Of a DNA stretch of 64,000 bases, positions 3,337 through 60,365 are shown one piece after another. The stretch's first letter is position 1. Every line of letters starts with the position of its first letter. The notes below the pieces were generated by a model that saw nothing but the letters and a program-made list of their open reading frames with translations, did no database searches and was not told where the DNA came from. Made by a program: the position numbers and the translations under genes. Source of the stretch: Lytechinus pictus (taxonomy: Eukaryota); NCBI RefSeq assembly GCF_037042905.1, contig NC_087252.1:1428001-1492000 (forward strand), read 5' to 3'.

Positions 3337-3514
3337 AGGGGAACATAACACAAAGCTTAGCAATCATCGTAGAACATTTTTTAAAGATTGATTGCATTGA
3401 CTACAATGTACAATTAATCATGAAGATCAGGCTAACGATTACTCGCTAGCCTTTTGCTACGGGACCTAGGGGTAGCATAGGGACACAAGGATTACATGTT
3501 TGTTGGGAGGCTCC

Positions 3515-4173
<659 letters not shown>

Positions 4174-8166: not shown

Positions 8167-8345
8167 CGAAGCATGCATTTTGAGGAATTTTTCGGAAGTT
8201 TGAGGGGCGATCTGGGTTGTCATGAGGACAAAATCGCCTGTCACCCTCATGTATTTCCAACTCAATACTATACAATGTTTCCCAGAAAAGTTATTAAGTC
8301 AAATATTGAAGAGAACTAATTTCTCAACTGCTTGTTTCTTAACTC

Positions 8346-8545
8346 TTTTTCTTGTCATTTGTTCTGGCTATTTTATTAGCTCAGTGCTTTCTCAACCTTC
8401 CATACCTACTAAATATTTCTCCTCCGCTGGCATACTCGGTAACAAGGTACATGTATCTCCCCCCATCTCCATGACTTGATAGAGACGAATCATAGACGGG
8501 AGACTGAGAACCTTCATTACTCTAATCTCCCAGACAACATTCTTG
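8346..8545 (-). pseudogene. Degenerate partial duplicate of exon 2 and adjacent intron
   Basis: Aligns with 8761-8960 (e.g. aaatatttctcctccgctggcatactc); +2 nt frameshift in a C-run near 8458-8465; donor altered. Confidence 0.88.
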
Positions 8546-8796: not shown

Positions 8797-9150
<354 letters not shown>

Positions 9151-15742: not shown

Positions 15743-17490
15743 TACTTTCATCAGTTGAACATAATTAAACAATGTGACAAGATAGTACCGGGAATGAGTT
15801 ATAATGCTGTGGATCTTAAATCAAGCATACAATTTTTTTTTCAGGGCAACTTTTCACAACTTACCTACTGCCTAAATGGGTTTTTTCCATGTCTCTTATT
15901 GGGGGTATAATGCTCAGGGGATCCTCCCCCCCCAAAAAAAAAATAATAATAATAAATAAAAAATAAAATAAAATTGGTTATAATAGTTATAATGCTGTGG
16001 ATTAATCAAGCAAACATTTTTTTCCCCAATTTTTTCAGGACTACTTTTCACAACTTACTGCCTAAATGGGGATGGGGGGAATCCCCTGAGTCCCCGCATA
16101 ATTTTTATCCTGCTAAAATGTAATTCCGAATCTAAGGAGACCAAAATATACATTATTTAATGTTTTATGGGCTAAATTAACTTTGTAAAACAAGACAAGA
16201 AAAACTGTACATTACATAATGTAGTTCTAATTCAGTAGCTTGATTCTAAATTTGTTCATCATGTGTTTGCCGAAGTTCTATTTGTAACAGATTTTCCAAA
16301 AATAATCAATGTCTGTTTATTTTGCCAGCCAAAAGATTACCTAACTGTCATCATCTGATATCAATGTACATGCATGGATGTACACGTGATATTGTTGTCA
16401 TCGCATGGTTTCTATATCTACATCAAGAACAGGGGCCCGATTCATAAAGAGTTTTACAACAGTTGTAACTTTGCCATTTGGCAACTACCATGGCAACCTT
16501 GATTTTGATTGGCTGCTGAGCCCTGTTGCCATGGTAGTTGCCATAATGGCAAAGTTACAACAGTTTAACTCTTTATTAAACGGACCCCAGATGATGAACA
16601 AAAGAGTTATTAAAAAAGACATATTAAAAAAAGAAATAGATTCATTTTTAAATTGAAACACATCATCTCTAAGAGATCAGATGCATTACATGTACGTACT
16701 CTTTGTGAAATGTAGGTTCAAAAGTCTAAGGAAAACTAAATATCATTACAAAATTACAACTAAACTTGTTGTGTCCTTCTATTGTACATTTCTCTCTTAC
16801 AAGAAAGCGTAAAATCCAAGTCATGTCTACATACATGAATGGTAAAGTTAAATACAGAACAAGTAATTATCATGATATCCTTTTACATCTGTATTTTCTG
16901 TGATTTTGTTTTTAATAGCTTGGGGGGAAAAGAATACAATCTGTAATATCATTATCCAAGAAATGTGGAGTTCATACGAGACTATGAGAATTAACTTTGA
17001 GAAAATGTTTATATAGCAGCAGCAAACTAGACTTTATTAGTCAGAAAAAAAGAAATATATTCAAGGATTTGTGAGTGCTAAGCTTTTTTATATCTCAGAT
17101 TTTTCTCTTTTTCAAAATTTAAGACTTACTGATGTGTGGAATCATAAGAATATATCAAAGAAAAAATATTCTGTTCCAGATTTGTCCTCAGCATATTTTG
17201 TTTGCATTTTATTCATTCCTTTTTACATGTCTATTAGTGATGCATAATATGATACTACTTCATTAAACTGCAATAGCAATTAGTCTCATTGACTCATGGC
17301 TGTGATTTAGCTTTAGCAAACTTTCATGTGAACATGTCTTATGTTTCGCAAGCACTGAACTTTGATCAGGGGACAGAAAACCTTGGTATCACTCACTGCT
17401 TTTTGGTATAATAGAGATAACCTAGATGTAGATCTGGTACATGAAGATATTTGCAGGAGATATTAAAGGTAATCCATGATTGTTCTTGCT

Positions 17491-31065: not shown

Positions 31066-33209
31066 AAAAAGGGGCATCAGGAGTCAGGAGCTGAAAGGGG
31101 TGGCTTTTGAGCACTTGCCCCTGCATCAAAGTTTGAAAGGTGCGTGATTCCATTGCTTACGCTGGCTTCAAAAATTCAAAAGGTTTCCACAAACCGGGTA
31201 AGCGTTTCATGGGAAGTTTTGCATGTGATTTTCACAGAAGGATGTTATAAGCTACTGAAAATGCTTGCATCTGATTGGCTATTAACATTTGTCAGTGAAG
31301 AGCACTGACCAAACTCTTCATGAAATGCTCCTAGGGAGTTGTGCCAGCAGCGAGATGAAATGCATGCCCCAATCTCCCCACTATTAATCCTCTCTTCCCT
31401 ATTAACACATTAGAAAGCCTACATGTATGAATATGATACCGATATATGTAAAGGAATTGCAGTACAACAGAGAAACGGGTAAAGATTTTAATCCAGGCAA
31501 TGTGAAAAGGCTAAAAAAATGATTTAAAGGCAAACTAATCACTACCGATGTGAACTGCCCTAGTTATTGAATGGCTCCTTCAAGTAGTTTTCCATACATC
31601 AAGAATTTCAAGGGATTTTTTTTTCAACGTCTTTTTGTGTGTGTGTTCTCTGCTTTTCATTCTTTTTGCCTTTTTTTCTCCTGAATGTAAAGGTAATATT
31701 TTGTTTTATTCTGTTATAAAGATTTTCAAAGGTTAGATGCCTCTCTGCTTATTTATGTTCAGTATTCTGCTTTTTCATCTTTGATGTTTGTCACGGATAA
31801 ATTTATTAGTATTCATGATCAAATGAGCACAATCATTAAACCAATTTATACTTACATGTATCTTTAATTACATGTACATGGTACAATAAATAATGCATTT
31901 TACCACAGGGGGGGGGGGTTACTGCCACTGAAGATAGGACAGTATCCAAGACCAAAAAAGAAACGCTGAAAGGGGGTATTCTTGCGGATGGGCGCAGAAC
32001 ATGAAAAGAGTAAATAAAAACAGAAAAGATGACGAAAAAGCCACCTAAATCATGGTAGCCTACAAAAAGAAAAGGGTAATTTGCACCAATTGTGGGACCT
32101 TCTGTATCAAGACCCTTGAAAGGCAGTCTCCATAAAAAAAGCCTGATAAAAAGTCCATACATGAAATGTATGGACTCGAAACTCGAACCCAATTCCCCAT
32201 TTGTTTCTTTGAATTTTCTCTTTTGTATGAATTCAACTGGTTTATTGCAAGACTTGGCCCACTTTTTGTGTCAGATATGGGTCTGAGATGGCGATACCAT
32301 ACATACATGCAGTCATTGCAGAGTACACCTTTGTGCTTTCATGTACATGCACAGATATTACACGAGATATGATAGAAAACAAACAACTTAAAAACTAGGT
32401 TGGTTCATGTTTAGAAAAGCAATAATGGTGATATCAACTACATGTAGGCCTACAAAAGCTATTTGCCCCAAGGTTTCATCAACGTCACTGGTGGTAAAGA
32501 TATGAAAATGAGTTTGAAGAAAATCCAATAAAGTCACCGCTATGTAAAAGGGGGAAAAATGTGTGCAATACGATATACATGTAGTAGAAAATGTGCAATT
32601 GCTGATAAACAGACAAAAAATCATGACATTCCAGCGGGCAAGAAATGACAAGGGGGCTGGGGGCAATTTAGCCCCCGAAATGCTCAAAAGAGCACTGGAA
32701 ACAAAAAAGATAAGCCCTAGAAATCCCCATTCATCTCATCTTATTAATGTTGAAGATTTACATGTACATGTAGACAGCACGTTGTGAAGAGTAGCCCCTA
32801 CCCCCCCCCCCTGGGATTTTTTTTTTTGGGGGGGGGGCCTGCATTCCAGCCAGATGCCCTGTCTACTTCCAAGCAATAATGATACACCATCCCACATGTG
32901 CTTATTTGTGTTGGTAATCTTCATTGTGATCATTTTGCAGGATAAACGTAATAAATTCCGTGATAGAGTGTAAGGTTCAGAGCCATGTGCACCACATCGA
33001 GATACAGCATGATGTAGTGACAATAAACCTTGACTTTATGACTTTCTCATGAAACCAAAATTTGTTTGCTGCAACTACATTATTTTATCTTTAGTTTCAA
33101 GTCAATGAATAATTTCAAAGTCTATCAAACTTTCCTAGAACTCAGCGGTCAGCAGATCACAGTACTGTTAAGGCAATACAAGTCATACATGTACATGTAC
33201 ATGTATGCA

Positions 33210-33995
33210 ATTGTTACTTGCTATTAACTTCTACCTTTCTACAAATCATGTTTAATAGGATTGAGATATTGAATTTCAAATACTTTCCATCTTTCCAATA
33301 ACTTAGCCTTCTTGTTTTAATAATAATGTGTCCCTGAATTCACAAATCCTGATAAATTAACATGCAAACATAAAATTCTACTTGATAACTGTATCATTTC
33401 ACAAACTATGATCATAATCTCTCTTGGGGGGGGGGGATGAGATATTGAATCTCAAATACTGTTCAACTTTCAAAGAACTTGGCCTTCTTGTTTATCCTTT
33501 AAAAAATAAAAATGCAAACATACTAATTGTAATTGCTAACTGTACCTTTCTACAAATCTTGTTCATTATCCTGTTTGGAATGAGATATTGGATCTCAAAC
33601 AGTGTTCAACTTTCAAAGAACTTGGCCTTCTTATTTATCCTGGTAAATCAACATGTATGCAAACATACTGTAGGCCCTACTGTACCTTTCTACAAATTTT
33701 GTTCACTATCCTTTTTGGAATGCAACATTGAATCTCATACACTATTCAACTTCCAAGAACTTGGCCTTCTTATTTAATCTATCTCTGAATTCACAAATCC
33801 TAGTAAATTATCATGCCAACATACTAATTGTACTTGCTAATTGTACCTTTCTACAAATTGTGTTCATAATCTTTTATGGAATGCGATATTAAATCTCAAA
33901 TACTTTGTAACTTTCCAAGAACTTCTTCGCCTTCTTGTAAAATGCATCTCTGAATTTGCAAATCCTGGTACTTACATGTAAAAACATCCTACTTG
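33210..33995. repeat. Degenerate ~140-160 bp tandem repeat, about 5 units
   Basis: Recurring TACCTTTCTACAAAT, ATATTGAATCTCAAATAC and AAGAACTTGGCCTTCTT blocks. Confidence 0.75.
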
Positions 33996-34064
33996 TACAT
34001 GTACATGTAATACGAACAGCCCACACAACCTGCCCACACAGTAAAACAGAGTATATTACATTAC

Positions 34065-34130
34065 CAGCAGTGCCAGCCTCACGTCTCGGAAACTTACCTG
34101 TAGAAAAGAAGAAATAAACAGAAAAGAAAA
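34065..34130 (-). promoter_or_regulatory. Candidate recursive splice site (polyY-CAG|GTAAGT) with 33-nt cryptic exon
   Basis: Minus strand TTTTCTTTTCTGTTTATTTCTTCTTTTCTACAG|GTAAGT, junction 34098/34097; second donor CTG|GTAATG at 34065/34064. Confidence 0.6.
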
Positions 34131-34884
34131 TATCAATTACATACATGCATGTACAAGGGGTAGAATAACAAGAAATGATCTCAACTACAATGTACAATTG
34201 TGGGTACATGTCGGCCTAACCAGAGTATGAAGGACTATTATAATAGGCCTATATATTTTGTAAACTTTACACGCATACTGCATGCACAAAAATATGAAAA
34301 CCATACTGTGTACAAGCATAAACTAATAAAACCTACATGTATAAAGTGCATTATTTGATTTTTTCCAGATTTTCTTTCCTTTTCTAAATTTTGCACCTAA
34401 CTATATCAATTATACATCTGTCACTTACACACTCCTATCATTTGAAAGTGACAGATATTACACATGCACACCACTGTACATACACTGTACAATGTACATA
34501 CATTTACATACATGTACACTGTGTAGGGCCTACATGTCTACTATAGACCAATATCTAGACTGCATTCAATCAACAGTTTTTTTATAATTTGACTCTTCAA
34601 ACTCATTTTGAAATTATTTATAAAAAATTTGACTGTAATATAGTTTTACACAAGAAGGCAAAATTTTCCCTAAATTCAGTCCTGAAGTCTCGTTATAATT
34701 TCGTGGAGCTCAATAAATCGCTCTTATTTTTTTAGGTGCTCAAATATCGCTCTCCTTGAGGAGCTCAAGTCAATTTAATACAAAACATGTATGCAAAATT
34801 GTAGATTTTTCTTAAAATTGTAAATGCAATAGCTGTGTAGCTATTAATTAATCTGTGGTGAAACTAGGCCTGGGTCATTACGTT

Positions 34885-35840
34885 TACAAAACATCGCGCT
34901 CCTGCTTAAAAAAAAACTTTACAAAACATAGTTTGAAAAATTGCTAAATTTCCCATTTTACAATTACATCTTTAAAATGAAATGGCCATCTATTTTCCAT
35001 AATTCTTTGAAATTATTTTGATTTAGTTGAAAACTACATTGTATCAGGAAAATTAAGAATATTCAGCTCTTTCTTGACTCTGATTGATGATGTTACAGTC
35101 TGTAAATATTGTAGTCCCACATGTAGACTTCCATGGTGTTGCAACATTAACTGAAAACGATCGTTGGTCGTTTTGATCGTTACTGATTGTTTTACACGTG
35201 GTCAACACCATGAAAATCTCCATATGGAACTACAATATTTACCTAGTTAAACATCATAAATCAGAGTCAAGAAAGAGGTGAATATTCTTCATTTTTTCGG
35301 TAGTTTCCATCTTAATCAAATTAATTTCAAGGAAATATGGAAAATACATGCCTATTTCATGAATATAAAGATGTAAAATGTGATATTTCAGCAACTTTTG
35401 GTGAAAGTTTTTTGGGTTTTTTTAAAGCTAAATGAACGTAGTTGCAGTAAAACACTGGTTTCGTGAGAAAGTCTGTAAAACCAAGGTAAAGTATTGATAT
35501 ATCATCGTGGATCTAGATCTGGTACAGTTACATAAACTGAACTTTGTGAAATCATAATATCTAGCTAAAATACGATCACACTGAAGATCGCCAATACAGA
35601 TAGGCACACGTGGGACAGTGTATTATAATTGCTGGAATAATGACCCGACGGAAGTGACCGAATCTGCGCTTATTTTGCTTATTTCTCAGCAATTACACAA
35701 TTTCTTCCAGAATCCTTTGGCACATATTTTTTAATCAAACAAACAGACACTTTGGTGATCATTATATTAAATTCTGTAAATAGTCATTTTGAGATCGTTC
35801 CCACTACTGGAATTCATCTTTAAGGAGCGCGATATTTTGT
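34885..35840. mobile_element. Foldback element interrupted at TTAA by a Kolobok-like MITE (35422-35823)
   Basis: Arms ~34885-35145 and ~35200-35425 are reverse complements; the right arm resumes (ggagcgcgat) after the TTAA-bounded insert. Confidence 0.65.
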
Positions 35841-37390
35841 TCTCATTATTTTTTTCGAGGAACGTGGTAGGAACGCCGGCGGGATCGCGCTCCTCAAAAC
35901 TGAAGGTCTGTAAATCATTTTCTAGTTTAGTTGGAAAACTGTGCACAATGTACAGGACCTACAGGAAATGACAACTGTACCCAAAGAAAAAGATAATAAA
36001 GTTTATTATCATAATGACATGTTCATGTATAATGCACACCAAATAGGGTCTACTGTACATGTGTATGTGCACACAGCAGGGCTGCCAAATCTCACTCATT
36101 GAGATTGAGGCTCACTCACTTGTTACTTTCTAACTGTAACATTTTGTTTCATTTGCTCTCATTTCTACATGTATTGATCTCTAGGACTCATTTTGACCAC
36201 CATGGGAGGCTGACTCTCAAATGTAGTTATCCCATGTTAGCTGCCCTGATAAAGGCCTGATCAAGCATTAAGCGATGCTCTGAGAAATATCTGGTATTGC
36301 GAGTACATTGCAGGGGTGTGAGTGGTCACAAATAAAAGATCTGAAAAAAGCTGAAGAGTGTTGAAAAAGTCTGAAATAGAAAGAGCTCCCATACTTTTTG
36401 TACAGAGGAAGGCCAAAAATAAGCTGAAACTAGATTTTAATTCGTCATGCGGACGAATTAGGTGGTCTGTCGTATAGATAGATAAACAGGAAAAAAATAT
36501 TTAAACAGATATTAGATTGAAAAATAGATAGACAAACAGATTTACATAATCAAACAGATACATACAAGAAAGATAATTATATTAGATGGATGGAGTGATG
36601 GATGGAGAGATAAATTATAGGTGGTTATATTAATAAAACATAGACATATAAAGATAGATATAGAGAGACAGACATATAGATAGAGAGACAGACATATAGA
36701 TAGATAGAGAGACAGACTTATAGATAGAGAGATAGATTGATAGATATATAGATATATAGATAGATAGAGAGATGATTGGTGGTTATATTAATAAAACATA
36801 TATAAACATATAGATAGAAAGAGAGACAGACAGATAGATAGATAGACAGATAGATAGACAGACATATATATAGATAGAGAGACAGACATATCATGAAGCT
36901 ATTACGAGCTATCTCGTAATAGCTTCATGCTGCGTGGTCCTATCGTGTTATGTAAGCGGGCTCTAACTTTCGCCTGGCGGCTCGCCAATTGATGTTAGAT
37001 ATCGTTCCTTCGCCCGAAGGAAGCGATAACAAAGGATTAAGAGAGAAATTGGAAGATGGTTCTCCTTCTCGTGATAGCTTCATGGATAGATAGACAGACA
37101 TATAGATAGACAAACATATAGATAGACAGAGAGACAGAAATATAGATAGATAGAGAGACAGACATATAGATAGATATATAGATAGATAGATAGATACTAT
37201 CTATCTATCTATATATCTATCTATAGACGTATAGATAGATACAGAGACAGACATATAGATTGATAGAGAGACAGAAACAGATAGAGAGACAGACATATAG
37301 ATGAATAGAGAGACAGACATATAGATAGATAGATAAATATATAGACAGATAGATAGATAGATAGATAGATATAGAAACAGACAGACAGAC

Positions 37391-37429
<39 letters not shown>

Positions 37430-37614
37430 GACAGGCAGATGGATGGATAGATAGATAGACATATCTAAACAGATAGATACATATATATTAGACAGAGAGA
37501 GAGAGAGAGATAAACAGACAGATAGATATACAATGTAGGTAGATAGACAGACATATGGATAGATAGAGAGACAGAAATATAGATAGATAGAGAGACAGAC
37601 ATATAGATAGATAT

Positions 37615-37667
<53 letters not shown>

Positions 37668-39508
37668 CATATAGATAGATACAGAGACAGACATATAGAT
37701 TGATAGAGATCGAGACAGAGATAGATAGAGAGACAGACATATAGATGAATAGAGAGACAGACATATAGATAGATAGATAGATAGATAGACAGATAGATAG
37801 ATAGATAGAGAGACAGACAGACAGATAGATAGATAGATATATAGATAGATAGATAGATAGAGACAGGCAGATGGATGGATAGATAGATAGACATATCTAA
37901 ACAGATAGATACATATATATTAGACAGAGAGAGAGAGAGAGATAAACAGACAGATAGATATACAATGTAGGTAGATAGACAGACAGACATATGGATAGAT
38001 AGAGAGAGAGGGACGTATTCAAACAGAAAGATATATATTAGACAGAGAGATAGATATGTCATGTAGGTAGATAGACAGACAGATAAATAGATATGATATA
38101 AAAAGTAATTATAATCTGTTTTATTTTGCAATATTTTAGCTATTATTTGTTAGAATTCTTATAATTGATCGTGGGCAAGATAGCTAAAAAAAAAAAAAAA
38201 AAAAAAAAAAATCATGTTCACCCGCGGACTCGAACCCCTGCCTGCATGATGGAATGAGAAGTAAGTCTGACACCTAACCGATTGAGCTAGAATATTTCCC
38301 ATAGACTTAACACGTAAGCAAAACACCAGAATCTCAAATCCAATCTTGCAAGTGAATTACGGGCATGATCCCGACATCTGATCGGAAAATGAAGGAAACG
38401 CAACCGAAAGCTTAGAATCTCAGCTACAACATACTAAAAGCTCAGGGATAACTAGCAACAAAAATTGGAGATATGGCTTACGAAATAGAAGAATGTAGAA
38501 TCTAGTTTTGAGAAAAAGTCATGTCCCATAGAGATTACACGCAAAATGAGTAAAAATGACATGCCATTATTATTTGCAATTTTTGAGGATGATTTGTCTA
38601 TCAAAATGAAAAATAAAGGCAATAACTCAGAAAGAGTAAGAACTAAGCTACAACATATCAAAAATTGGGTGAAAATTGACCAATATTCACGGAGTTAGAG
38701 CAAGATTTGCATAATTATAATGACGTCATAATAGGCAAAATGGATTTTTTGAATTCCGACGCCATTTTGATGACGTCATAATATAATTGAGGGTCAAATG
38801 AGACATGAAATTATATCTCTAGTTCATACTCTATCAAAATATGAAAAAAAAATTGGGGGTCCCCATGCGTTCTGAAGAGCTACAGCGGATTTTCTATAGG
38901 CATGTTTTTGCCCATATATGGCCTATAGTGAGAGCTCGCGCGCACACGTGCTGCAAACTTTAACGGGTGTTAATTTCCTTATTAATGGTCGTAGAAGGTT
39001 GATCAAGGTATCAAATTGCTCAAAATTATATGATCAATGCAATGAAATAAAAAAAAACGGTGTTTCTGAGTTGCATTGAGGCGTTACGCGCGGAAACGCG
39101 CGCGCATACGTTTGCGCGCGCAATTTTTTGAAATGCTTAAAATGACCTAGAACGTACTCTGTTTTGGTCAAAAAGTGATTTTTAGCATTTTAAAATTTTG
39201 ACGCGCGCGTACGCGCGCGTCGTGACCTTCAGGTGACCTTTGATGACATGACCTGATGACCCTTGATCTGAAGTTTATGTCATGTGAATTTGATTTATTT
39301 TTGATAATTGATAATGGAGATATGATTGATAATGTGATTTTACAAAATGGCGTCTAGATGACGTCATGATGACGTCATGACATTAAGATTCTTGCAGAAT
39401 TGAGGTCTTATTGATGTTGATATGTGGTGATATTTTGATGATTATTGAATATGAACTTTCTGAGATTTGCTGTCCACAAGAAATGGAGGAAATAAAAATA
39501 AGAAATAA

Positions 39509-40256
39509 CTAGATTTTAATTCGTCATGCGGACGAATTAGGTGGTCTGTCATATAGATAGATAAACAGGAAAAAAATATTTAAACAGATATTAGATTGAA
39601 AAATAGATAGACAAACAGATTTACATAATCAAACAGATACATACAAGAAAGATAATTATATTAGATGGATGGAGTGATGGATGGAGAGATAAATTATAGG
39701 TGGTTATGTTAATAAAACATAGACATATAAAGATAGATATAGAGAGACAGACATATAGATAGAGAGACAGACATATAGATAGATAGAGAGACAGACTTAT
39801 AGATAGAGAGATAGATTGATAGATATATAGATATATAGATAGATAGAGAGATGATTGGTGGTTATATTAATAAAACATATATAAACATATAGATAGAAAG
39901 AGAGACAGACAGATAGATAGATAGACAGATAGATAGACAGACATATATATAGATAGAGAGACAGACATATCATGAAGCTATTACGAGCTATCTCGTAATA
40001 GCTTCATGCTGCGTGGTCCTATCGCGTTATGTAAGCGGGCTCTAACTTTCGCCTGGCGGCTCGCCAATTGATGTTAGATATCGTTCCTTCGCCCGAAGGA
40101 AGCGATAACAAAGGATTAAGAGAGAAATTGGAAGATGGTTCTCCTTCTCGTGATAGCTTCATGGATAGATAGACAGACATATAGATAGACAAACATATAG
40201 ATAGACAGAGAGACAGAAATATAGATAGATAGAGAGACAGACATATATATAGATAT

Positions 40257-40293
<37 letters not shown>

Positions 40294-43113
40294 CATATAG
40301 ATAGATACAGAGACAGACATATAGATTGATAGAGATCGAGACAGAGATAGATAGAGAGACAGACATATAGATGAATAGAGAGACAGACATATAGATAGAT
40401 AGATAGATAGATAGACAGATAGATAGATAGATAGAGAGACAGACAGACAGATAGATAGATAGATATATAGATAGATAGATAGATAGAGACAGGCAGATGG
40501 ATGGATAGATAGATAGACATATCTAAACAGATAGATACATATATATTAGACAGAGAGAGAGAGAGAGAGATAAACAGACAGATAGATATACAATGTAGGT
40601 AGATAGACAGACAGACATATGGATAGATAGAGAGAGAGGGACGTATTCAAACAGAAAGATATATATTAGACAGAGAGATAGATATGTCATGTAGGTAGAT
40701 AGACAGACAGATAAATAGATATGATATAAAAAAGTAATTATAATCCGTTTTATTTTGCAATATTTTAGCTATTATTTGTTAGAATTCTTATAATTGATCG
40801 TGGGCAAGATTACGAAAGACCATTAGTGCCACGGAGAAAAAAAAACACTATTTCTACTAATCTGTTATAACAGATTACGGTATTTCTACTAATCTGTTTA
40901 AACAGATTATAATCTGTTATAACAGATTACGGTATTTCTACTAATCTGTTATAACAGATTACGGTATTTCTACTAATCTGTTATAACAGATTACGGTATT
41001 TCTACTAATCTGTTATAACAGATTACGGTATTTCTACTAATCTGTTATAACAGATTACGATATTTCTACTAATCTGTTTAAACAGATTATAATCTGTTAT
41101 AACAGATTAGTAGAAATACCGTAATCTGTTATAACAGATTAGTAGAAATACCGTAATCTGTTATAACAGATTAGTAGAAATACCGTAATCTGTTATAACA
41201 GATTATAATCTGTTTAAACAGATTAGTAGAAATATCGTAATCTGTTATAACAGATTAGTAGAAATACCGTAATCTGTTATAACAGATTAGTAGAAATACC
41301 GTAATCTGTTATAACAGATTAGTAGAAATACCGTAATCTGTTATAACAGATTATAATCTGTTTAAACAGATTAGTAGAAATATCGTAATCTGTTATAACA
41401 GATTAGTAGAAATACCGTAATCTGTTATAACAGATTAGTAGAAATACCGTAATCTGTTATAACAGATTAGTAGAAATACCGTAATCTGTTATAACAGATT
41501 AGTAGAAATACCGTAATCTGTTATAACAGATTATAATCTGTTTAAACAGATTAGTAGAAATATCGTAATCTGTTATAACAGATTAGTAGAAATACCGTAA
41601 TCTGTTATTACAGATTATAATCTGTTTAAACAGATTAGTAGAAATACCGTAATCTGTTATAACAGATTAGTAGAAATAGTATTTTTTTTTCTCCGTGGCA
41701 CTAATGGTCTTTCGTACAAGATAGCTAAAAAAAAAAAAAAAAAAAAAAAAATCATGTTCACCCGCGGACTCGAACCCCTGCCTGCATGATGGAATGAGAA
41801 GTAAGTCTGACGCCTAACCGATTGAGCTAGAATATTTCCCATAGACTTAACACGTAAGCAAAACACCAGAATCTGAAATCCAATCTTGCAAGTGAATTAC
41901 GGGCATGATCCCGACATCTGATCGGAAAATAGAGACCACACTTGCGATAGCTTACAATCTCAGCTACAACATACTCCAAGCTCAGAGAAAACTGACTAAC
42001 AGAAATGGAGATATGGCTCGCGAAATAGAGGAATGTAAAATCCAGTTTTGAGAAAAAGTCATTTCCCATAGAGATTACACGCAAAATGAGTAAAAATGAC
42101 ATGCCATTATTATTTGCAATTTTTGAGGATGATTTGTCTATCAAAATGAAAAATAAAGGCAATAACACAGAAAGAGTAAGAACTAAGCTACAACTTATCA
42201 AAAATTGGGTGAAAATTGACCAATATTCACGGAGTTAGAGCAAGATTTGCATAATTATAATGACGTCATAATAGGCAAAATGGATTTTTTGAATTCCGAC
42301 GCCATTTTGATGACGTCATAATATAATTGAGGGTCAAATGAGACATGAAATTATATCTCTAGTTCATACTCTATCAAAATATGAAAAAAAAATTGGGGGT
42401 CCCCATGCGTTCTGAAGAGCTACAGCGGATTTTCTATAGGCATGTTTTTGCCCATATATGGCCTATAGTGAGAGCTCGCGCGCACACGTGCTGCAAACTT
42501 TAACGGGTGTTAATTTCCTTATTAATGGTCGTAGAAGGTTGATCAAGGTATCAAATTGCTCAAAATTATATGATCAATGCAATGAAATAAAAAAAACGGT
42601 GTTTCTGAGTTGCATTGAGGCGTTACGCGCGGAAACGCGCGCGCATACGTTTGCGCGCGCAATTTTTTGAAATGCTTAAAATGACCTAAAACGTACTCTG
42701 TTTTGGTCAAAAAGTGATTTTTAGCATTTTAAAATTTTGACGCGCGCGTACGCGCGCGTCGTGACCTTCAGGTGACCTTTGATGACATGACCTGATGACC
42801 CTTGATCTGAAGTTTATGTCATGTAAATTTGATTGATTTTTGATAATTGATAATGGAGATATGATTGATAATGTGATTTTACAAAATGGCGTCTAGATGA
42901 CGTCATGATGACGTCATGACATTAAGATTCTTGCAGAATTGAGGTCTTATTGATGTTGATATGTGCTGATATTTTGATGATTATTGAATATGAACTTTCT
43001 GAGATTTGCTGTCCACAAGAAATGGAGGAAATAAAAATAAGAAATAAATAAATAATAAAGAAAGAAAATTCGGACAAACATAATAGGTGATCTGTCATAG
43101 ACAGACCACCTAA
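39509..43113 (-). mobile_element. Helentron/HINE-like element, inner complete copy
   Basis: Near-identical to 36430-39508 and has both termini. Confidence 0.8.
40811..41716. mobile_element. IS3EU-like foldback element with internal 32-bp tandem arrays
   Basis: Long TIR TACGAAAGACCATTAGTGCCACGGAGAAAA; 6-bp TSD CAAGAT (40805-40810, 41717-41722); empty site at 38176-38181. Confidence 0.85.
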
Positions 43114-57337: not shown

Positions 57338-60200
57338 ATGTATGTACTCACAGATGTAGGATCAAGGCCAGTTGCGCTACAGATGTACATTACATTGTAC
57401 ATACATATTTTACATTTATAATGTATTTATTAAAAATACAAAACACATACATGTTGTGCAGTGTCTGGCAGAATACTGAAGTGATCATTCTACTGTACAT
57501 ATAGTACTGTACATGTATTTTACTGGGCATGTATGTATCTATACATGTCATTATTACATACATGTACATGTACGTTCAGGTCAAAGACCTGCCCATGTTC
57601 AGGGAGACAGTGTCCATGTTCTTATTAATGCACAATGTGCCATGTGTTGACGACATAAAATAACAATGGATGATTCAGAGCAGCAATAGTCTCTATGTCA
57701 CAGACTCAGTGATACATGACAGGTGGGGTCTGATTAGTCTGTTGTGCAAACCCTTCACTCAAGTTTCAGGGTCTGAATGCACAGCCTATAATACCTTGCG
57801 CACAGTAGGCCCCTCTTGCTCAGAAACTGAAAGAGCAAGTCTTGTGCTAGTCTTGTGTGAAGACCCACTTTTGCTGATTTAGTTTCAATCAGGGACTGTG
57901 ACTACAGACTACACACAAGGTCTGATTGCAAATGGGTTGGAAGGGGGCTAGTATTAAGGGAAGCCTACATGTACATGTATGATAAAGGTTGAGACTGCTA
58001 AATGTTACCTTTAAAAAAAAATATGTAGGCGATGTGTCTGATACATCAAGACTACAAACAATGGGTGCAAATCAACCATCTCCTCTAAACCTCTTTGTTG
58101 TTTATTTAAATTGACAATGATTCATTGCAGGATTTGCATATTATATATGAAAACTCTTACCTTTCCCCAAAATAGGAATGTTCTTTTTACTGTAGGAACA
58201 GTGGCAATTACTTGTACTGTATGCTGTTACTATGCGCATTATAGACCTACATGTACAGTGTACAATGTACATGTTTTCAAAAAATAAATCAACATGAGTA
58301 TGGAGGTGCAGACTACTCTTTCCAAGACAGGGATCACTACCAAACAGGGTAGCCAAGAAATGCACACAGATGTCATTAGAGTAACATACACTGTGTGAGC
58401 ATGCTACTGAAATCAATGCCCGGCTTCAGGTGATAGAAGGGTGTCCTAAAGGGCACAGTCTTGGCACTGAGGCATGTCATCTCCGTCTTCAGAAACTATG
58501 CCCCTGTGCGTCCCTTGGGCTGCCCATCTCATTCTCATGACATGCATGTACCGTGGACTGCTGCCTGCATTTAATTTATTCCTGATACATGGATGTTCAA
58601 TATGGTTCCATACATGTACAGCCCAGATACAACATGGTTCCTATCCAGTATTAAAGGGCCTCAACAGACAACAGCAGGAGCATTTTTTGTTCAATTTAAC
58701 TGTTAACAAATCTAGAAATGTCAAAGTAATTGAAAGAGGTGTGAAAATGACAGTCCAAGAATAGACCAGTTCGTACATGTAGTTACTTCATGGACAATTT
58801 TGGTCAAATTACCTTTCTTTTCTTTCATTATGATAGGCAAATTTCAAAGCAAGATATTACCTAAGCATGCCTTACATAGCAGGATGAAGAAATTGAATAG
58901 ACCAGGTGACTAGAATAGCACACCAATGAACACTCTAATGAAGGTATTTTGTTGTATTTCTACTTTTAATGCATATTATAGCATGCTGCACAATGAACTT
59001 GGCAAACTGTGAAATACCAGTCTGCAGTCGTTCGTGGCTCATTGTTTTTTTTCGTGGATGTAAATGAAAAAATACTCGCGTCGGCCGATAAATATCATGA
59101 ATTGTAAAATACTTGCATCGGCCGATAAATATCATGAATCAATTGTAAAATACTTGCATCGGCCGATAAATATCATGAAATCACTTCATGAAATTTATCG
59201 GCCGATGCAAGTATTTTCATTTATCTAAGTTGGCACTGCTCATGATATTGTAGCCCTCTATACGCGTCTAGTATCTTTGGCTACGATAACAAAGACGGCA
59301 AGATGGCGACAATAACATATGTAAGTAAACGCTCAGACTCAACTTTTAATATTTTAATGTATTTAAGCGTCATTTTATGACAAAAACTGACAATTTTTGG
59401 CCAAGTTGCCAACCAATATTGCACTTGTATTTGTAGCCCATTTACATAAGTTTGGGCACAAAACCCTCAAGATAACTCGTATTTTGGCGCAACATTATTG
59501 TTGCCTAATTCGTCGGTGCGTGTAGAGCAATGGTATGCCGTCCCAGGCTTAATGGAGAGTAAGCCTACGTCAGTAAAATGACTTAGCCTAGTTTTACTCT
59601 CCAGAAGCCTCCAGGCTAGTCGTGCCATAAAGTGTCCCGCACTGGCACGCATCAATGCGGGGCAATGCGGGCACCACAATGTGTACAACTACAAGTGTCA
59701 ACCAGGCATAAAATTAAGACTAAGTTATGCATTATTACAATCCAACCTCAAATCGGTTGACTCAGGCTCAGTAATGAAATTAGTGAAGTGAACATGGACA
59801 TGGTGAAACATCAATTGTGCCCAAATCACGACACAACATAATAAAAACAATATTAACAAAATATCTCAATTTCATCTAAGAGATTTATTTTACGAGTCAA
59901 ATAAAAACTCATTTCTCTCTGACTCTGTCATGATCATATCATAGGGCCATGCCCAACAATCATGGCCAAAACAGGCAGTCATGAGCAACAGTCAACACTC
60001 AACAAACACACCACCATTCCTGCTGCATCATGTGCATGCAACTCGCAATGGCAAAACTACCCGTGCTTCGAGTTCGAGTTTACGAATTGCCCCTGCGAAT
60101 TGCGTGCAGCACCATTATGAGTATGACAACACAAAACATCTGCACACCACACAGCAGCAAAAGTTAGAGACGACAACGTTAGAAATAATGTGGATTTTAC

Positions 60201-60365
60201 CTTTGTTCTCGTTGGTACATGAGTTGCTAATTTGACAACAGCAAAATTTCCTTTTCCAATGGCTTTCTCGATTTCGTATTGTCCAACACGTATTTGTCCT
60301 CTTGGTCTGGAGGCATTTGATATTCCATGACCGCCGCTGGTCTGCGGCTGACGGCTGGACGCCAT
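60201..60365 (-). CDS. SIK3: SIK3-like kinase, coding exon 1 (MASSRQPQTS...RVGQYEIEKAIGKGNFAVVKLATHVPTRTK)
   Basis: ATG at 60365 in AAAACATGG context; Gly-rich loop IGKGNFAVVKLA typical of SIK/MARK kinases; ends AAG|GTAAAA, phase 0, 165 nt. Confidence 0.93.

Follow-up and report, generated by a model that had tools for sequence, protein, structure and literature searches.

Recursive splicing is an established mechanism in flies and vertebrates, and the mechanism as such is not new here. In vertebrates, recursive splice sites and RS-exons were reportedly described by Sibley and colleagues in 2015. Drosophila ratchet points were defined by junctions between an annotated donor and an intronic AG/GT together with a saw-tooth coverage pattern and were confirmed by lariats; TT occupies positions -6/-5 in 196 of 197 fly sites, and the introns concerned measure 11-133 kb with segments of 2.6-64 kb (Duff et al., bioRxiv 10.1101/006163). 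Where flies have a single recursive site it lies near the intron midpoint, according to the accessible sections of Pai et al. (PMC6110457).

For sea urchins, the accessible part of Shepard et al. 2009 (PMC2773006, Table 2) gives 0.540 predicted sites per 100 kb in introns longer than 50 kb and 0.066 on the opposite strand, an 8.2-fold excess. Blazquez et al. 2018 (PMC6224609), as far as the available text goes, assigned scores to those annotated sea urchin exons that are putative RS-exons, and in the available parts of Hoppe et al. 2023 (PMC10156609) the only studies named are from Drosophila and human. Among titles and abstract openings of the open literature, we found no RNA evidence for recursive splicing in echinoderms and no paper linking recursive splicing to SIK3. 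The original prediction for the present locus, that echinoderms offer little documentation of recursive splicing, holds at the RNA level and has to be amended in that sites had already been predicted for sea urchin introns above 50 kb (PMC2773006). The novelty lies in transcript-level support from a sea urchin, not in the idea of recursive sites there.

A juxtaposed acceptor and donor halves a 51-kb intron of a SIK3-like gene

We analysed a 64-kb stretch of Lytechinus pictus DNA (the window; all coordinates are window positions). Its minus strand carries exons of a SIK3-like kinase gene. Exon 1 (60201-60365), the first coding exon, comprises 55 codons, ends in phase 0 and is single copy in the genome, while exon 2 (8823-9003) is the second coding exon, 181 nt long, and encodes part of the kinase N-lobe. 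Exon 1 matches residues 5-34 and exon 2 residues 36-94 of human SIK3 (PDB chain 8r4o_A); because both are contiguous on this match, no coding exon is missing between them. The PDB match does not separate the SIK paralogues, since no SIK1 or SIK2 chain was among the PDB matches of the exons. Two RRASDG motifs in later exons, which we take to be SIK3-type PKA sites, support SIK3 over SIK1/2. From the PDB match and these C-terminal motifs, the gene is likely SIK3. Its later exons reach about 24 kb before the window start (G000:C8, about 1.40-1.43 Mb; L026-L028). A search for longer relatives with the exon-1 protein returned one of 101 candidates, a genomic read-through that holds no isoform information.

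Two duplications were seen near the downstream exons. About 410 nt downstream of the true exon 2, at 8305-8543 (minus strand), the 3' part of this exon recurs together with the start of the following intron as a degenerate copy (79% identity) in which the donor GT is not preserved in place. Another exon-end duplication concerns the kinase activation-segment exon, whose end occurs three times at about 3511-4173 (minus strand) with a period of about 180-184 nt.

The intron between exons 1 and 2 runs from 60200 to 9004 and measures 51,197 nt. At 51% of its length, at the boundary 34098|34097, a site with no coding exon divides it into segment 1 (34098-60200, 26,103 nt) and segment 2 (9004-34097, 25,094 nt), which agrees with the division into about 26.1 and 25.1 kb put forward in the original prediction. 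Segment 1 also holds a 1.26-kb direct duplication of a GATA-microsatellite block (36415-37661 and 39494-40726, 93% identical), whose 39494-40726 copy is followed by a 32-nt satellite at 40849-41678.

Read on the minus strand, the site consists of a pyrimidine tract at 34130-34101, CAG at 34100-34098 and GTAAGT at 34097-34092. The tract, claimed earlier as about 30 nt of pyrimidines, contains 27 pyrimidines in 30 positions and lies within an 80-nt zone free of AG; among the best 28 of the 69 YAG|GT sites on both strands of the intron, this zone is the longest. Predicted candidate branch points are the adenines at -40 (34137) and -36 (34133), within 34132-34140. A second pyrimidine-rich stretch (34149-34175, minus strand) ends in CAT at about -52; it says little, because TGTACAT occurs 54 times in the 51-kb intron and the 34098 site has an ordinary adjacent tract as well.

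Of the 353 occurrences of AGGT in the 64-kb window, counted on either strand, the site ranks first, with a donor that matches six of six positions, in keeping with the earlier remark that no other AG|GT site of such strength had been noticed. YAG|GTRAGT preceded by at least 24 pyrimidines in 30 occurred in none of 180 simulated introns, and with at least 21 in 30 it occurred in 9 of 180. The simulated introns were drawn from Markov models of orders 1, 3 and 5 (60 each), and the site had been picked post hoc, so that these counts give no strict p-value. On the antisense strand no such site was found. A strong acceptor and a strong donor of the polyY-YAG|GT form are thus juxtaposed on the sense strand beyond chance, as in ratchet points. 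AG|GT at 15864, 35242, 9778, 18630 and 14416, likewise within the intron, was not proposed, as each of these five sites lacks either the tract or the donor.

Because a dispersed repeat could carry such a motif, as the original prediction had itself pointed out, we searched for further copies. The 401 nt around the site (33900-34300) match only themselves in the 812-Mb genome, in a search that skips very common words, and exon 1 likewise matches once. Membership in a repeat family was rejected on the basis of this single match and of flanks that differ from those of the repeat family among the pattern matches described below. A degenerate 140-nt tandem repeat nearby stops at about 34001, which is 96 nt behind the site.

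Across the genome, 23 exact matches to the pattern Y10-N-CAGGTAAGT were counted compared with 16 in the reversed control, which is hardly an enrichment. By eye, the 22 matches other than the site itself comprise eight in one dispersed repeat, four in a poly-C repeat, four ends of tandem short exons, two probable coding exon ends and four that we could assign to neither a repeat nor an exon end. The pattern count gives no argument for or against a class of such sites and says little on looser or displaced tracts. A second, ad hoc pattern was dropped: it had one match compared with two in the control and missed the 34098 site itself.

The dispersed repeat (L004, L009, L010, L015, L018, L019, L022 and L024; 8 of the 23 matches, by eye) contains a ready-made tract with CAG|GTAAGT, and its insertion in the sense direction could seed ratchet-like sites. 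L011-L014 (G000:C5, about 31.53 Mb) are four near-identical 33-nt Ser/Thr-rich exons, each with its own acceptor and GTAAGT and 3-6 kb apart, which probably belong to a mucin-like repeat gene made of micro-exons. Four strong tract plus CAG|GTAAGT sites (L005, L006, L020 and L021) are possible candidates for further recursive sites.

Contigs join exon 1 to the intronic site

Thirteen runs share words with the region, none of them recorded as RNA. The contig sets X4-X7 hold 0.48 of the words, X1-X3 hold 0.05-0.06 and X11-X13 0.00, and the contig alignments cover X4-X7. When these four sets were aligned to 33230-34630, each yielded a 1,064-nt contig on 33230-34099 with no differences over the 870 nt aligned. 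Its mean word depth is 19.8, 6.7, 11.1 and 12.5 in X4 to X7, respectively. Behind 34099, all four contigs carry the same 26-letter loose end, which equals window positions 60203-60228, the end of exon 1 located 26 kb away. The identity of these 26 unplaced letters as the exon-1 end had been predicted before the four-set alignment and was then borne out. Once the shared AG is added, the loose end reproduces the exon-1 end exactly; it is joined to GTAAGT at 34097, and 1,036 nt of intron come after the joint. Segment 1 is skipped, and the CAG at 34098-34100 serves as the acceptor for exon 1.

Alignment of X4 to the wider interval 31100-36400 showed that the contig matches 33062 to 34099, again with its first 26 letters unplaced. 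Its end at 33062 shares 30 letters with the neighbouring X4 contig and is therefore a branch of the graph and not the end of an RNA. From there X4 contigs tile onward with two small gaps to about 31057, about 3 kb in all. Among the pieces listed for X4-X7, no further contig overlaps 34065-34099.

A junction that leads from the donor of the upstream exon to the site and runs on into the intron, as at ratchet points, was thus found in four of four contig sets of one study. This junction between exon 1 (60201) and 34097 is the one that the original prediction had singled out for checking, and it is seen in contigs, not reads. The observations support the contig being the first-step intermediate of recursive splicing. 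Of the predicted removal in two steps, the first therefore has the exon 1-34097 junction behind it, and the second, from the regenerated donor to exon 2, would likely follow.

The same junction is what an alternative last exon would produce, since there too an upstream exon is spliced to an intronic acceptor. Exon 1 would then be joined to 34097, the transcript polyadenylated some kilobases downstream as a dead-end half-intron that encodes a 68-residue stub, and GTAAGT would be incidental or used only sometimes. Such a reading draws on the continuity of the joined form over 1,036 intron nucleotides in all four sets and on the onward tiling in X4, on a frame from exon 1 that reaches a stop after 13 codons, and on AATAAA signals at 32246, 31807 and 31710. 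X4 contigs nevertheless cross all three of these nearest signals (32137-32278 and 31100-32096), although contigs cannot show RNA ends, and the density of AATAAA in segment 2 (22 in 25.1 kb) does not exceed that in segment 1 (29 in 26.1 kb). A midpoint position and a perfect donor immediately following the acceptor are expected of a ratchet point, not of a last exon. We regard an alternative last exon as an unlikely explanation that still deserves attention.

The nature of the contig sets bears on this question. The contig graph has a word length of 31, and exactly one such word, made up of 28 exon letters and GTA, opens the contig. Exon 2 starts with GTG and has two letters in common with the site, so the start word marks where the graph branches between the two continuations; we infer that the runs also hold the exon 1-exon 2 form and hence derive from RNA. 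By the same reasoning, the contig start implies no kept branch to the unspliced exon 1-intron form. Such an absence is odd for pure nascent RNA, in which a similar amount would be expected, and it is the main point that fits a stable transcript or a last exon. A slow second step could also account for it, as could capture of A-runs by oligo-dT. Such runs occur 1.3 kb (11 letters) and 2.5 kb (9 letters) behind the site, but in segment 1 none is encountered until 10 kb behind exon 1, and oligo-dT capture is thus a candidate that could by itself favour the intermediate over the unspliced form.

X4-X7 come from one study of unrecorded library type, comprise at most four samples and show no difference from the assembly. 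They may stem from the same animal or line, so we count them as one line of evidence, not four. The exon side of the joint is 28 letters long (26 unique) and so falls short of the 31 letters required of a bridging contig, and read counts cannot be taken from contigs. Around the joint, the exon-1 donor and the site have six letters in common, two to the left and four to the right, so the exact cut is ambiguous within these six letters.

A joint that did not arise by splicing, either a genomic allele with a 26.1-kb deletion or a template switch of reverse transcriptase at the six-letter microhomology, would draw on exactly these properties: the unrecorded library type, the common letters and the single study. 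The ends of the joint, on the other hand, fit canonical GT-AG exactly and are the same in four runs, and the assembly has no joined copy, with the site and exon 1 matching once each. A deletion allele further sits poorly with contig sets of 105-158 million letters each for a genome of 812 Mb; in a DNA library, a heterozygous deletion would be expected to branch two letters later and a homozygous one not at all. A non-splicing origin of the joint is accordingly very improbable. The small size of the sets, the canonical ends of the joint and the branch at the contig start make it likely that X4-X7 are RNA-derived.

Other runs and the contig coverage add little to either side. About 6 in 100 of each of the raw rRNA-depleted runs X8-X10 were read; this portion yielded no 34097 junction and scarcely any depth on unique parts of the intron, and at so low a depth the result is uninformative. 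X4-X7 have no cover on 34123-34451 just upstream of the site and the contig covers all of the downstream side; this resembles a saw-tooth step, although missing contig cover is no evidence. Depth is one figure per contig and so yields no coverage profile across the site.

A probable two-step removal of the SIK3-like intron

From the sequence of the site and the contig junction, we consider it quite probable that the 51-kb SIK3-like intron is removed in two halves via a ratchet point. In the first step, shown at the contig level, splicing of the weak exon-1 donor (GTAAAA, 60195-60200) to the strong acceptor at mid-intron removes 26.1 kb. Joining exon 1 to the 34098 acceptor recreates a perfect GTAAGT donor at 34092-34097, for which use in a second splice would be expected. 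On the model developed for flies and vertebrates, the site would be defined through a short cryptic exon that opens at the acceptor and closes at a donor at 34064 or 33975. A first candidate for such an RS-exon spans 34065-34097 (33 nt, in frame, without a stop) and an alternative of 122 nt, with a stop, extends from 34097 to the second candidate donor at 33975. The junction contig passes through both cryptic donors.

We compared the donors by their predicted pairing with U1. The regenerated donor behind exon 1 reaches -10.6 kcal/mol, compared with -6.4 for the donor of the 33-nt exon, -6.9 for that of the 122-nt exon and -6.8 for the weak native exon-1 donor. Since its predicted pairing beats that of the cryptic donors, the regenerated donor should win and the cryptic exon should be skipped. 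It would then be spliced to exon 2 in the second step, removing the remaining 25.1 kb, and the mRNA would bear no trace of the site. The energies fit the donor-competition model, in which the regenerated donor competes with that of the RS-exon, as set out in the accessible part of PMC8605326.

According to the same partly accessible source (PMC8605326), some RS-exons of flies and mammals are expressed, and the 33-nt candidate could accordingly be a cassette exon contributing 11 in-frame residues to the kinase N-lobe, the contig representing a partly spliced precursor. Its length, phase 0 and lack of a stop would suit such a role. The added residues would, however, land between SIK3 residues 34 and 35 in the kinase domain, the donor is weak (-6.4 compared with -10.6 kcal/mol), and in the four runs no contig end or join was found at 34065 among the pieces listed, contigs being prone to drop rare forms. 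We judge an expressed cassette exon to be extremely improbable.

A further, decidedly unlikely variant is that the half-spliced RNA is a stable, regulated species and the ratchet point a switch between full SIK3 and a transcript held or terminated in the second half-intron, with the 68-residue stub as its product. If true, this would make recursive splicing a dosage control on the SIK3 kinase in sea urchins.

Returning to the two-step removal, we find that the site works like a ratchet point in its sequence and its junction, and full membership in that class would require the second step as well. A first-step junction in an invertebrate deuterostome fills a gap between flies and vertebrates and supports stepwise removal of long introns as an old and general animal mechanism. 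The site also provides a precise and cheap test target in an embryo system in which the transcription time of long genes matters.

Comparison with fly, vertebrate and predicted sea urchin sites

In human SIK3, a 141,078-nt intron has eight motif-only putative sites in the S1 Table of Zhang et al. (PMC6110456), and among the matches listed for 12 of the 15 supplementary files of that study SIK3 did not occur in the tables of sites with junction or saw-tooth support. There is accordingly no sign of a site common to human and sea urchin. In the nine supplementary files of Pai et al., neither the name Sik3 or Sik2 nor a corresponding identifier was found, in tables that may use other identifiers.

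The sea urchin site resembles Drosophila ratchet points such as those of Ubx, kuz, Bx and luna, which are zero-nucleotide sites with cryptic RS-exons, in its tract and AG|GTAAGT, its sense-strand placement within a long intron, its junction from the upstream exon and its single, near-midpoint location. The 51-kb intron and its segments of 25-26 kb fall within the fly range, and the candidate short cryptic exon behind the site likewise has the weaker donor. Fly branch points lie at -36 to -21, a range that includes the sea urchin candidate at -36. Two features differ. The TT at -6/-5, typical of fly sites though not universal, is replaced by C at -6 and T at -5, and the shorter cryptic exon candidate of the sea urchin is in frame, which those of flies in general are not.

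With the vertebrate RS-sites, in so far as their descriptions were available, the sea urchin site shares an acceptor followed by a regenerated donor in a long first intron and, presumably, the same two-step chemistry. It belongs to the same motif class as the RP-sites that Shepard et al. predicted and lies, as they do, in an intron above 50 kb; the rate given in the accessible part of that study corresponds to about 0.3 sites for an intron of this length. Those sites were derived from sequence statistics only, whereas the site in the sea urchin SIK3-like gene has transcript-level support.
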